NCBI GenBank assembly: GCA_043813875.1
Contig: JBDRKP010000023.1
Coordinates: forward strand, 1-39,548
Direction: 5' to 3'
Length of the DNA: 39,548 bases
Source: an archaeon
GTDB taxonomy: Archaea; EX4484-52; B79-G9
Shown here: positions 6,001 to 9,000 of the stretch, piece after piece
Layout of the letters: each line of letters begins with the position of its first letter
Numbering within the stretch: the stretch's first letter is position 1
Position numbers: made by a program

Positions 6001-9000
6001 AGCTTGCCGTAAGAATCATCTCTCTTCTCAGCCCTCACACTTCGCGCTCCATAACCGTCGCATTGCAAGAGAAACTCTTCACCTGGATACTCTGGCCTTC
6101 CGAAAATATTGACCCGGACATTAGAGAACTCAGTACATGCCATCTTGAGCAGATTTATCCCCTTGACGCCTCCCTCCCGGAAATCAGCAAAAGCACAAGT
6201 ACCTGTTCGCACCATCTCGGCGATTGCAGTCCTCATACCAGAAACAATGACCTCATCACTGGCAGTTTTAAGATATTTCTCCTTGATCCCGTCCTTGCCA
6301 CATACATTAACTAGATCCATCTCGAAAAACTTCTCACGCAGAAAATAGTCTCCCACATGCGTATGCGCATTTATGAACGCAGGAACGACAGACCTCTTCA
6401 GCCCGCCATCAACAGTCCCCTCACCGCAATCGGCAATCTTTCCATCCTCAACAACAACAAAGCCCTCATCTACATATTTAAGGTCGCGCCCAAGAAACAC
6501 AGGGCCACAGAACACATGTCTCTCAGTCATAATCCCAGCTCATGCCCTAGTTTCTCCTGCTTGGCAAGAAGATACTTCTCATTATTCTTGTTCGGCTTCA
6601 CCCTAAGCGGCACGGTCCCTGCGATATCAATCCCGTAGCCCGAAAGCCCGGATATTTTGCGCGGGTTGTTCGTGATAAGCCTGATCCTCTTAAGCCCAAG
6701 GTCAGAAAGAATCTGCGCCCCGATCCCATACTCCCGTAAGTCTGCCCCGAACCCGAGCTTCTCGTTCGCCTCTACAGTATCAAGCCCGCCGTCCTGCAGT
6801 TCATAAGCGCGCATCTTATTAAGGAGCCCGATGCCTCTCCCTTCCTGGCGCATGTAAAGCACCACGCCGCATCCTTCCTCATTCACCAGTTTCATCGCCC
6901 GCTCGATCTGGTCCCCGCAGTCGCATCTAAGCGACCCGAAAACATCACCTGTGAGACACTCGGAATGCACCCTCACAAGCACCTCCTTCTCTTTTTTGAC
7001 ATCACCCATGACAAGCGCAAGATGGCACTGTCCATCGATCTTAGACTCATAAGCGACAGCCCTGAATTCACCGTATTTCGTAGGCATCCTGACATCAGCC
7101 GCGCGCTCGACAAGCACCTCATTTCTCCTCCGGTACTCAATCAGATCCTTGATTGTCGCGACCTTAAGACCATGCTTCCTGGCAAACACAAAAAGTTCAG
7201 GAACACGAGCCATCGTTCCGTCATCATTCATGATCTCACAGATAACGCCGGCGGGCTTTAGTCCGGCAAGCCGCGCAAGATCGACAGCCGCTTCAGTATG
7301 CCCTGTCCGCACAAGCACACCGCCTAAAACAGCCCTGAGCGGAAAGATATGCCCTGGCCTCGAAAAATCAGTGCCTTTTGAATCAGTATCTATCGCCTTA
7401 AGTATAGTGGTCGCCCTGTCATGCGCAGAAATCCCTGTAGTCGTACCCTCTTTCGCATCAATAGACACAGTAAAGCCGGTCTCATGCTTATCAGTATTAT
7501 TGGCGACCATCTGCGATATCTCAAGTTCATTAAGTCTTTGTGCAGTCATAGGCATACATATGAGTCCCCTGCCATGTTTTGCCATGAAATTTATGATATC
7601 GGGAGTGACTTTTTCAGCGGCGCATACAAGATCTCCCTCGTTCTCCCTGTCCTCGTCATCGACGACAACAAGGATTCTCCCGCTGCGTATCTCATCAATA
7701 GCTTCATCTATCGTCGCAAAATCGTACTTCCTCATAATTGTCCCCATACTTTTCTAGTTCTATATAACGCTAATGCCATTGTTCTACTAAGATATTGTTC
7801 TATATTACACCATTGCTATTGGACTATTTCTCTATTATTCTATATGACAATATTGCTATCTCACCATATTGTACTATCACAATAACACAGCATCAAGACA
7901 TGGCTTACCTGAACTTCCTGGCAAGCTTCACCGCCGCTTCAACTGCATTCTTCGCGTTCTTGATCCTCTGGTGCCCTTCAAGCCTGCTCATGCCGGGCCC
8001 AGTGATACCGAAACCAATCGGCTTGTTATATTCAAGAGACAAGTCCATGATCTTCCTTGCCGAATGCTGCGCCACAAGCTCGTCATGGTCCGTCGCTCCC
8101 TCGATCACCGACCCGAGCGCGACAAGCGCATCGATATCCTTTCGCTCGATAAGGTTCCTGCACGCGAACGGTATCTCGAAACATCCCGGCACTAAAACAG
8201 TCTCCACAACCTCGCAGCCAAGGAACTTGGCATGCTCAGTAGCGAGATTGATCATCGCCTGCGAGAGATCGAAATTGAACTCCGCGGCAACGATACCTAT
8301 CCTCAATTTTTTATCATCCATAAAATCACCTGTTCTATTTATTTGATCATTCCTCTGTCTTCTCCGCCCTGCCTCTGCCCGGTCCCGGCCATCTTCACAA
8401 GCCTTTTCGGATATAGGACAAGATCAATCGCATTGAGCGCATGCTCCCGCGTCCTCTTCTCAGCAAGCCGGGCAAGCTCCTTAGAGCTATCCGCCTCATC
8501 CTCATGCACGAAGACCTCGATGATATGCGTATTGCACATCAGCTGCGCACTGATAAGCCCCGTCGACGCCTCATGCGCGCACTGCTTATCGATCGCCTCC
8601 TTGCCGGGCATCCCGAGCGCCATCACGATATCACACTTAAACTCATCGATCAGTATCTTGCACTCGACCGGCAGATCCTTCACCCCGGGCACAGTCCTTC
8701 TCACGATATCGCACGCAACATTCTTCTTGATTTCATCAATTGCGATATCGCCCATATTGATCATCGCAAAAGTAGTATCGACAACACCGATTCTAATAAG
8801 AGATCACCTCGATTTCATCGCCGTCTTTAAGATTAAGCGCTTCACGCAGCCTGACGGGCGCCACAATCTCGACGATTCTCCTGTCGTGATGCGTCCTTTT
8901 CGGGACAAGTATAGCGCCCTCGACCTCATCATTTATCCTGCACTTGAAGCACATTAGTTCCCCGAAGCTCCGCCCGCCATCAGTAAACCCGTCAATGACA

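Follow-up and report, generated by a model that had tools for sequence, protein, structure and literature searches.

Where does a gene begin when its conserved N-terminal sequence lies ahead of every canonical start codon in its frame? The question is raised by ribC, the riboflavin synthase gene of the window (the whole stretch of 39,548 nucleotides analysed here, contig JBDRKP010000023.1 of an uncultured archaeon). The encoded protein matches TIGR01506 with 201 bits (over cut-off), residues 3-150 aligning to profile positions 2-150, and the first canonical codon, the ATG at 8764, lies 11 codons downstream and already beyond the G-V-V-D-T motif. This ATG is the pick of a standard gene caller, which truncates the gene, as the first-pass annotation had claimed. 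The locus is laid out as follows.

8339..8797, minus strand: ribC, archaeal riboflavin synthase, 152 aa from AUU (TIGR01506 and open reading frame)
8795..8797, minus strand: proposed ribC start codon AUU (ATT), kept in 6/6 relatives
8804..8810, minus strand: ribC Shine-Dalgarno (SD) sequence GAGGUGA (GAGGTGA, 8810-8804), inside the 3' end of ribK
8793..9458, minus strand: ribK, wHTH/CTP-dependent riboflavin kinase, 5' of ribC and overlapping it (NF010762, E 1.7e-50, a match below the curated cut-off)
8762..8764, minus strand: first in-frame ribC AUG, the truncated start of the standard caller, 11 codons late

A start at the AUU, proposed earlier for ribC, is borne out by comparison. Of eight matches, two are truncated by contig ends, and in the six genomes with upstream DNA (G000, G001, G003, G005, G006 and G020) the ATT is invariant and no in-frame ATG, GTG or TTG stands ahead of the motif. 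The spacing of 6-7 nt was also confirmed, being 6 nt after GAGGTGA and 7 nt after GAGGTG; the SD is complementary to the 16S 3' end GGAUCACCUCC on C12, and (G)GAGGTG is found in all six relatives. In the window, an in-frame TGA stands two codons 5' of the ATT on the minus strand. The overlap between ribK and ribC measures 5 nt (AUUAG), the last U of AUU being the first base of the ribK stop, and the last RibK codon varies (TAT, AAT or CAT, that is Y, N or H) while the ribC ATT stays constant in 6/6. Among outgroups, ATG, GTG or TTG is found 3-6 codons ahead of the motif in 41 of 44 parsed loci. Against an AUU start counts that two outgroups (L113, L114) carry Ile at position -3 as an internal residue. 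The SD heptamer doubles as coding sequence for E-V of RibK, which also counts against it.

The window holds a further case, in a ribosomal protein gene:

22743..22934, minus strand: ribosomal protein eS17, 63 aa, from AUA at 22934 (NF002242, residues 1-62 = profile 1-62)
22940..22946, minus strand: eS17 SD AAGGUGA, its GUG in frame in this window

Among 32 eS17 loci, ATA or ATC occupies the start in 7/7 genomes of the genus and 2/4 of g3, and ATG in the other 23; in G001, G002 and G005 the SD GUG is out of frame and the SD UGA in frame instead, and three genomes lack any canonical codon before essential sequence. The PF00833 profile matched in one of five outgroups. For eS1, the reported AUC in 7/7 of its own genus and AUA in 4/4 of a sister genus were found again, the others having ATG (21), TTG (2) or CTG (2) among 36 loci; the next canonical codon in G000 lies 29 codons on, and some copies carry an ATG 16 codons downstream. 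The start is ATT in 9 and ATG in 17 of 26 parsed eS27 loci, and ATH (ATT, ATC or ATA; AUH in RNA) in 13, ATG in 17, TTG in 3 and GTG in 2 of 35 parsed eL42 loci. A search for eL39 with PF00832 matched one of five genomes, with an ATG start there.

Enzyme genes extend the list. For ubiX (16 of 19 loci parsed), the AUH start suggested before is upheld by ATT in 7, ATC in 3 and ATA in 1, with ATG at the same place in 2 and further up in 3; six g2/g3 genomes have no canonical codon ahead of essential sequence. The proteasome beta subunit PsmB shows ATA in G000 and G001, ATT in G008, ACG in G013 and ATG in G018 at its start position, with its G-T-T-T processing site at residues 7-10 and the first ATG at residue 13. 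In an FAD oxidoreductase (C53:-4494), no AUG occurs until 72 codons after the GxGxxG domain (residues 7-43). Less decisive is mtnA, for which AUC or AUU was indeed found in 6/6 of the genus; its grading as a probable start proved too strong, the SD GTG being in frame in 6/6 and another GTG lying two codons downstream in 4/6, and the case is best regarded as ambiguous. In all, eS17, eS27, eL42, eL39, proteasome beta, TldD and the FAD oxidoreductase appear to be AUH-start cases beyond those listed earlier. The candidates with an AGGAG-type SD (C31, C56, C66 and C53:-8559), which have Pfam domains after a canonical start or none, were excluded from the count. A screen for long coding stretches ahead of the first canonical codon returned mostly probable broken genes or spurious ORFs.

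Genome-wide enrichment of SD plus AUH had been called weak, and a first test reproduced this (AUH at 12/76 sites vs 6.9 expected, p=0.04; at the loosest SD cut-off 22/207 vs 18.8, p=0.26), because the GTG inside a GGTG SD was counted as a start. With the SD-internal GTG ignored, the signal is clear: in a revised test (GGTG SD, 5-7 nt), whose rule was set post hoc on data already seen, AUH takes 19 of 69 sites in G000 vs 6.5 expected (p=1.4e-5), and 11 of 138 out-of-frame triplets at the same SDs. Canonical starts peak at 6-8 from the U of GGAGGU, and 182 of them, beside the 19 AUH, lie 5-7 nt after GGTG. AUH is not enriched at spacings of 2-4, 8-10 and 14-16 nt and slightly enriched at 11-13 nt (12/69, p=0.027); neither CTG, ACG/AAG/AGG nor TTY is enriched at SD spacing in G000 (TTY 2 vs 2.7 expected, one of the two being aRF1). 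In G005 (877 kb of about 2.2 Mb), a relative of G000 with shared orthologues that had already been inspected when the rule was set, AUH takes 7/20 sites vs 2.0 expected. The lineage controls have little power (G022, 250 kb, 1/3 vs 0.3; G017, 120 kb, 1/4 vs 0.3), as do the pooled outgroup loci of only 216 kb (2/42 vs 1.5, p=0.44). AUH would form a regular minor start class of about 6% of GGUG-led genes and about 1% of all genes. That several genes start in this way is right as to the class and too narrow as to its breadth, which extends to about 15-25 genes in G000, to other families and to two outgroup genes.

The reading that we favour, at a probability of about 0.88, is that near-cognate AUH initiation behind GGUG(A) SDs is a regular minor class, exploited by this lineage in the gene of release factor aRF1. 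A GGUG(A)-type SD 5-7 nt upstream would let Met-tRNAi (CAU) initiate at AUU, AUC or AUA, the pairing presumably being mismatched at the third codon position, in this small phylum and sporadically in other DPANN archaea; initiation would probably be weaker than at AUG. The sequence comparisons support the AUH reading because AUH sits at the position of orthologue Met1, where it proves evolutionarily interchangeable with AUG, UUG and GUG, has SD spacing, and in several genes has no canonical alternative. Inspected by eye, aIF1 and the initiator tRNA show no obvious lesion. The tRNA gene has anticodon CAU, A1:U72 and three G-C pairs, and its intron seems dispensable for AUH starts because g2/g3 lack it and yet use AUH. 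The ordinary appearance of aIF1, present in 38/41 genomes with an ATG start in each of the 29 loci (out of 30) that show their start, counts against the AUH reading; the aIF1 of S. solfataricus is described in a part of PMC4705826 as discriminating against AUU in vitro. Archaeal starts are given as AUG, GUG and UUG in the portions cited of two reviews (PMC7531240, PMC4705826), and no report of AUH starts in DPANN archaea was found in the open-access library searched.

AUH would be an internal Ile if translation instead began at the GUG within GGUG or at a different canonical codon lying a few codons 5' of AUH. A 6-nt spacer always brings the GUG of GGUG into frame, and it stands three codons upstream in every AUH copy of eL42 and eS27, in PsmB and TldD, in the mtnA AUH copies and in 7 of 11 AUH copies of eS1 (in-frame GUGs near some eS1 copies had been noted before), and an ATG or TTG immediately precedes it in some eL42 copies. 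However, the SD GUG is out of frame, or the SD UGA in frame, in ribC (6/6), ubiX (7), eS17 (3), eS1 (4) and the oxidoreductase; moreover, the spacer shifts between 5, 6 and 7 nt among kin while AUH keeps register with orthologue Met1, and the two codons separating GUG from AUH do not conserve their amino acids, which leaves this alternative improbable. For ribC, a RibK-RibC fusion through a +1 shift at the ribK stop, or termination-reinitiation as the sole route, would need no de novo AUU initiation and would fit the overlap of AUU with the ribK stop, in the +1 frame, in 6/6. It is highly improbable: the codon preceding the ribK stop is TAT, AAT or CAT, read by three different tRNAs, beside an invariant AUU, no RibK sequence occurs among the 120 matches listed of 151 longer RibC proteins, and events at the ribK stop could not account for eS1, eS17 or ubiX. 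Reinitiation at the AUU may aid ribC and is compatible with AUH initiation. Translation from the first downstream canonical codon corresponds to the output of the gene caller, to the varying length of database aRF1 relatives (359-396 aa) and to the ATG 16 codons down in some eS1 copies. It would cost RibC its first strand and G-V-V-D-T, the oxidoreductase its GxGxxG, the proteasome beta subunit its G-T-T-T site and aRF1 its GRHTE region in 26/87 copies, and is scarcely plausible. Conversion of AUH to AUG by mRNA editing, or an assembly error, has a nearly negligible chance, since dozens of assemblies made independently show three different AUH codons, and also ACG and CTG, at these positions.

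The main new case, which the earlier list of starts did not include, is aRF1. Bacterial prfB, which encodes RF2, is decoded by a +1 frameshift at CUU-UGA-C, with an SD 3 nt before the P-site codon and a preceding ORF1. In the archaeal genomes, aRF1 was retrieved by a protein query (PF03463 had returned pelota) and identified by TIGR03676 at 447 bits. Among 34 genomes of the phylum in which its 5' end is seen, 24, from five of eight families, have no in-frame start and show SD-ATT-stop, the protein being encoded in +1 (UUU). The stop is TAA in 16, TAG in 5 and TGA in 3; AUU-U is present in 24/24, an unrestricted set, and C follows the stop in 21/24. In metagenomes (Aenigmarchaeota-like), 87 of 91 true aRF1 matches are in +1, although the search pattern fixed ATTT-RR and so supplies no denominator. 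C follows the stop in 68/87, compared with 218 of 1585 stops in G000; the SD spacer is 6 nt in 78, 5 in 8 and 7 in 1, there is no conserved ORF1, and 26/87 reach the GRHTE motif without a canonical start. TGG is absent among the true matches, a weak control in view of the rarity of TGA (1/87). In the aRF1 frame, changes at the base behind the stop are synonymous, and the bias there (AAC 18:AAT 1, AGC 9:AGT 0) departs from that in the same ORFs (200:346 and 83:122); related sequences are not independent in these counts. In-frame forms with ATT (G009, G025), ATC (G022) or ATG (7) have their Met on the UUU position or close to it, and they occur nested within the tree in five separate places. Of the 69 sites in G000, 2 combine SD-AUH-stop with a +1 gene, the second (C7:+2940) having an ATG in the SD region.

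The comparison of genomes thus establishes the site and its conservation, and a stop conserved right behind AUU would be useful only with a ribosome holding AUU in its P site. Its most likely role is an autoregulatory +1 shift that resembles the one in prfB but is set on the start codon itself. A ribosome initiating at the AUU would meet a stop codon in its A site; with plentiful aRF1 it would terminate at AUU-stop without product, and with scarce aRF1 it would pause, the initiator tRNA slipping one base from AUU to UUU, and aRF1 would be made. Given AUH initiation, this slip and feedback are moderately probable. There is a little better than an even chance that the whole picture holds, namely that Aenigmarchaeota-related archaea routinely start at AUU, AUC and AUA, and that a one-codon AUU-stop-C ORF with an initiator tRNA +1 shift at low aRF1 arose convergently with prfB, is ancestral to two sister clades and was lost at least five times.

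Less probably, though with a fair chance, and for aRF1 only, UUU might instead be initiated directly, with AUU-stop as a competing decoy or 'ambush' stop, or be reached by reinitiation after termination at AUU-stop. UUU does lie 6-8 nt from the SD, and G009 differs from its sisters by an in-frame TTT to ATT change; however, TTY shows no enrichment among starts elsewhere, and the C after the stop matches the weak-termination context of prfB. Reinitiation has a start-stop precedent in E. coli narQ, GUGUGA (PMC9841429), but aRF1 production would then probably require aRF1, a dependence opposite in sign to what homeostasis needs. It is unlikely that a short upstream ORF (GUG-x-x-Ile-stop or Met-Arg/Cys-Ile-stop) lets tRNA-Ile shift +1 in elongation, exactly as in prfB. 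The SD GTG is in the ATT frame in 72/87 metagenomic copies, and ATG or TTG lies two codons before the ATT in 5/5 genomes of the genus, which counts against a shift at the start codon; yet those codons have no SD upstream, in 7/87 copies the ATT frame holds no canonical codon, the GUG falls out of frame with the 5-nt spacer that is frequent across the phylum, and the spacer bases are poorly conserved.

A small uncultured archaeal phylum thus appears to start some genes, including several ribosomal proteins, at Ile codons. Annotation gives core genes of these genomes wrong starts, as with the aRF1 relatives entered at 359-396 aa. An intact-looking aIF1 beside AUH-started ribosomal proteins and a proteasome subunit offers natural material for studying P-site third-position fidelity in archaeal and eukaryote-like initiation complexes. 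If true, the aRF1 site would extend release-factor feedback through recoding to archaea, contrary to what the cited part of PMC3521657 states. It would also represent a frameshift by the initiator tRNA ahead of the first peptide bond. The element measures 20 nt and is amenable to existing archaeal in vitro systems; no report of an aRF1 frameshift was found in the open-access library searched.

NCBI table 11 includes AUU, AUC and AUA among its rare starts. In mitochondria, AUA and AUU serve as starts with an f5C34 tRNA-Met; AUH codons would likewise be regular starts here, but AUA stays Ile in elongation, as far as seen. E. coli infC has an AUU start through which IF3 controls itself. It resembles the present cases in that a translation gene carries a near-cognate AUU preceded by an SD (PMC4705826, in the part cited); the differences are that about 15-25 genes and all three AUH codons would be involved, in archaea, and that aIF1, the fidelity factor, has no infC-like loop. 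In Haloferax volcanii, harringtonine Ribo-seq gave about 30% near-cognates among 160 putative alternative starts, which, in the portion cited, were discounted because they might be false positives, and which are not conserved main starts (PMC7261190).

The aRF1 site shares with prfB a release-factor gene, a zero-frame stop readable by the encoded factor, a putative +1 shift onto UUU, a C after the stop, an upstream SD and repeated loss to in-frame forms. In the cited part of PMC3521657, such control is described as a bacterial trait that archaeal and eukaryotic factors lack, and aRF1 as reading all three stops. The eRF1-like gene of Mimivirus and Megavirus, treated in the same part, is also an eRF1/aRF1-type factor with recoding, there at internal stops (PMC3521657); it is viral and involves two events, readthrough and frameshift, whereas the aRF1 site is found in cellular archaea and would involve one event, at the start. 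In E. coli narQ, too, a stop directly follows the start and the gene is read in a different frame (PMC9841429), but the arrangement is a -2 overlap of canonical GUGs needing RF2, in contrast to the proposed +1 shift onto UUU in the release-factor gene itself. Unlike in prfB, all three stops occur at the site and the SD is 5-7 nt off rather than 3; there is no ORF1, and the shift would take place on the start codon itself, so that the P-site tRNA would be Met-tRNAi on AUU.

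The riboflavin synthase gene ribC, recognised by a profile search (TIGR01506), lies on the minus strand of the window, and its 5' region reads GAGGTGA-TCTCTT-ATT AGA ATC GGT GTT GTC GAT ACT, in which an in-frame stop lies two codons ahead of the ATT and the first downstream ATG is 11 codons away. The AUU start at 8797 proposed in the first-pass annotation holds, as ATT is found in all six genomes with upstream DNA, without a canonical codon (AUG, GUG or UUG) ahead of the conserved motif. The ribK stop overlaps this ATT, and the final RibK codon varies between TAT, AAT and CAT while ATT is constant. 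The resulting 5-nt start/stop overlap, AUUAG at 8793-8797 (AUUAA in three relatives), has a geometry that is impossible with NUG starts. In the outgroups (53 ribC loci), 41 of 44 parsed loci have ATG, GTG or TTG 3-6 codons ahead of the glycine, 17 of these with ATG exactly at the ATT position, and the remaining three have CTG or ATA nearby. A ribC similar to that of the genome under study (G000) was found in 8/41 genomes, one of them beyond the genus, whose 83% identity hints at transfer.

The riboflavin cluster ribK-ribC-ribH-ribBA occupies 6527-9458 of the window and includes a bifunctional, bacterial-type RibBA; a threonyl-tRNA synthetase of bacterial type follows at 10025-11968. Among the matches listed are many proteins of 280-310 aa with PF00885 alone, several named Micrarchaeota riboflavin synthase, which are probably RibC-RibH fusions.

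Starts at AUU, AUC or AUA (AUH) behind a Shine-Dalgarno (SD) site also precede other genes of G000, on the window and on other contigs (C5 to C77):

Window, ATA at 22934, minus strand: eS17; 32 loci with ATA 5, ATC 4, ATG 23
C27:14199, plus strand: eS27; ATT 9, ATG 17 of 26 parsed loci
C27:13880, plus strand: eL42; ATH 13, ATG 17, TTG 3, GTG 2 of 35 parsed loci
C53:25742, plus strand: proteasome beta, ATA; four relatives with ATA, ATT, ACG, ATG
C77:20711, plus strand: TldD, ATC; 124 codons to the next canonical one
C61:14665, plus strand: glutamate 5-kinase, ATC
C5:36296, plus strand: Memo-AMMECR1, ATC
C53:4494, minus strand: FAD oxidoreductase, ATC; at the aligned position G002 has ATG and G001 has ATA

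For eS17, the TGA of the SD is in frame in three relatives (G001, G002, G005), leaving no alternative start. The AUC/AUA starts noted earlier for eS1 hold in a set of 36 loci (ATC 7, ATA 4, ATG 21, TTG 2, CTG 2), and so does that of ubiX, for which 16/19 loci were parsed: ATT is found in G000 and in six genomes of two sister genera, which lack a canonical codon and have a stop five codons upstream, and ATG takes its place in G005 and G022. For mtnA, the claimed AUH codon is present in 6/6 genomes of the genus, but in-frame GUGs nearby make the start ambiguous. The proteasome beta gene is, at a guess from its matching codon pattern, the g00957 of the first-pass annotation. Nop10 has an apparent ATC/ATT start in G000, G001, G003 and G005, and ATG in G006. 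In other families, AUH starts are seen at aIF2-alpha (ATC, G017), at the termination factor aRF1 (ATC, G022) and at eS27 (ATT, G019); in outgroups, ATA is seen at eS1 in G045 (1/5) and at aRF1 in G044 (1/8 parsed), there with ATG six codons later. The trait is densest in family f1, though not necessarily confined to it. CUG starts behind SDs occur at eS1 in G024 and G029, at ribC in an outgroup locus, at two outgroup lumazine synthase loci and at a glycosyltransferase fragment (C78:4836, minus strand), and the proteasome beta gene of G013 has an ACG start behind its SD.

The G000 assembly (1.64 Mb, 91.5% complete; 1626 genes from a crude self-trained model), of which the window is contig C23, belongs to a phylum whose 42 genomes form one order with eight families. 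Its 16S 3' end is GGAUCACCUCC, and the distance from the U of GGAGGU to canonical AUG starts peaks at 6-8 nt. The genome-wide enrichment of AUH behind SDs, previously called weak, was so in a first test (12/76 vs 6.9) and is clear once the GTG of the SD is ignored. When 877 kb of G005 were compared with G000 (343 closed pairs), conserved AUH emerged at eL42, eS27 and eL39, which that test missed because a 6-nt spacer puts the GTG of GGTG in frame, where it was counted as a start. Under the GTG-ignoring rule, which was set post hoc, the 5-7 nt spacing yields 182 canonical starts and 69 non-canonical sites, of which 19 are AUH where 6.5 would be expected (p=1.4e-5). Read out of frame, the triplets behind these SDs are AUH in 11/138 cases, other spacings give 9/66, 3/68, 12/69 (p=0.027) and 5/71, and no other near-cognate group is enriched at GGTG spacing in G000. 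G005, which is not independent of G000, gives 7/20 vs 2.0 under the same rule; pooled outgroup loci, with little power, show no AUH enrichment (2/42 vs 1.5). The excess of ~12 corresponds to roughly 6% of GGUG-led starts in G000, and the rule does not capture eL42, eL39, mtnA or Nop10; an estimated 15-25 genes would therefore start at AUH.

A further site is found at aRF1:

C79:21558-22774, plus strand: aRF1 (TIGR03676), gene position C79:21569

The gene has no in-frame start in G000; its 5' end reads AGGTG-TTGCGT-ATT-TGA-C, with the protein frame one base on (TTT GAC). Matches to aRF1 were found in 36 phylum genomes, and the 5' end is visible in 34 (cut in G001 and G012). In 24/34, from five of the eight families, an SD is followed after 4-7 nt by ATT and a stop (TAA 16, TAG 5, TGA 3; C next in 21), with aRF1 in +1; the other ten genes start in frame (ATT 2, ATC 1, ATG 7). 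In metagenomes, the pattern GGTG-N4..7-ATTT-RR ahead of the G[RK][HG]TEL motif matched at least 120 rows; among the matches listed, 104 are distinct, 91 are true aRF1 and 87 of these lie in +1, counts that reflect breadth and not frequency as the pattern fixed ATTT-RR. In these 87 listed copies the stop is TAA 58, TAG 28 and TGA 1 times; the spacer is 6 nt in 78, a C follows the stop in 68, and 26 have no canonical start ahead of the motif. That C is a synonymous position of codon 2, at which 34 non-redundant copies have AAC 18:AAT 1 and AGC 9:AGT 0, vs 200:346 and 83:122 elsewhere in the same ORFs. In a FastTree phylogeny (82 sequences, 395 columns; G016, G028, G031, G032, G020 and G040 excluded), the phylum is sister to proteins named Ca. 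Aenigmarchaeota (support 1.00); the AUU-stop site is found in both sister clades, nested in-frame forms occur at five places, and eight outgroup genes lack the site. The site is almost certainly under selection.

G010 has two aRF1 copies (C58 and C51), both with the AUU-stop site, and the one 92% identical to the genus of G000 is probably a binning contaminant. A long insertion is present in some of the Aenigmarchaeota-like aRF1 ORFs, and two database relatives have intein Pfam domains.

The aRF1 site supports AUH initiation because only a ribosome with AUU in its P site has a use for a stop preserved right behind that codon. Judged from the position, conservation and exchange with canonical starts of the AUH sites, and from frame, stop and context at aRF1, AUH initiation is probably real (about 0.88), and Met-tRNAi would decode these codons. 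At aRF1, the initiated ribosome would face a stop in weak context, and aRF1 would compete with slippage of the AUU by +1 onto UUU, so that low aRF1 would raise its own synthesis; such a slip would keep the middle pair and add a first-position U-U mismatch like that tolerated at UUG starts. Slippage with feedback is moderately favoured by the sequences. Direct initiation at UUU with AUU-stop as a decoy, or termination-reinitiation as reported in part of PMC9841429 for E. coli narQ, is a possible but less probable explanation. In-frame database relatives have Met where UUU stands, and UUU is not a general start in G000. In G009, TTT AAT GAA of its sisters is ATT AAT GAT, which gives the same N-terminus without a shift.

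Initiation at AUH with an ordinary-looking aIF1 is unexpected, as aIF1 of S. solfataricus is reported to reject AUU (excerpt of PMC4705826); a passage of PMC6237735 confirms its fidelity role in P. abyssi. Here aIF1 was found in 38/41 genomes; it begins with ATG and has no evident lesion. For the initiator tRNA, G000 has a gene (C76, complement of 2539-2656) with A1:U72, three G-C pairs, a CAU anticodon and a 41-nt intron in the anticodon loop; the intron is 32 nt in G005 and absent from sister genera g2 and g3 and other families, and g2 (G012, G008) has C33 in place of U33. No change in aIF1 or initiator tRNA tracks the AUH trait. In the simplest reading, a well-placed GGUG(A) SD would keep the complex at the site so long that a mismatch at the third position is tolerated.

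Elsewhere in G000, a T2SSF/TadC-like pilus gene (C67:33827, plus strand) has ATG, then an A11-A12 run and G, and a 349-codon ORF in the -1 frame. It is present in 7/7 genus genomes examined, and G000 has no longer A run; the arrangement likely reflects programmed -1 frameshifting or transcriptional slippage.

AUU initiation is known for infC (excerpt of PMC4705826), near-cognate starts were seen and then set aside in H. volcanii Ribo-seq (part of PMC7261190), and archaeal starts are given as AUG, GUG and UUG in a passage of a review (PMC7531240). A section of PMC3521657 places release-factor recoding in bacteria and giant viruses and says that archaea lack it, and a section of another review (PMC5009743) gives only viral, chelatase and Sulfolobus cases of archaeal frameshifting. 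No report of AUH starts or of an aRF1 start-stop frameshift was found in the open-access literature, subscription journals lying outside the scope. The bacterial RF2 gene prfB has an internal site and a 3-nt SD spacing; the aRF1 element lacks both of these defining features and is therefore not classed as a member. The two would nevertheless work alike, and the aRF1 site probably represents a prfB-like autoregulation placed at the start codon.
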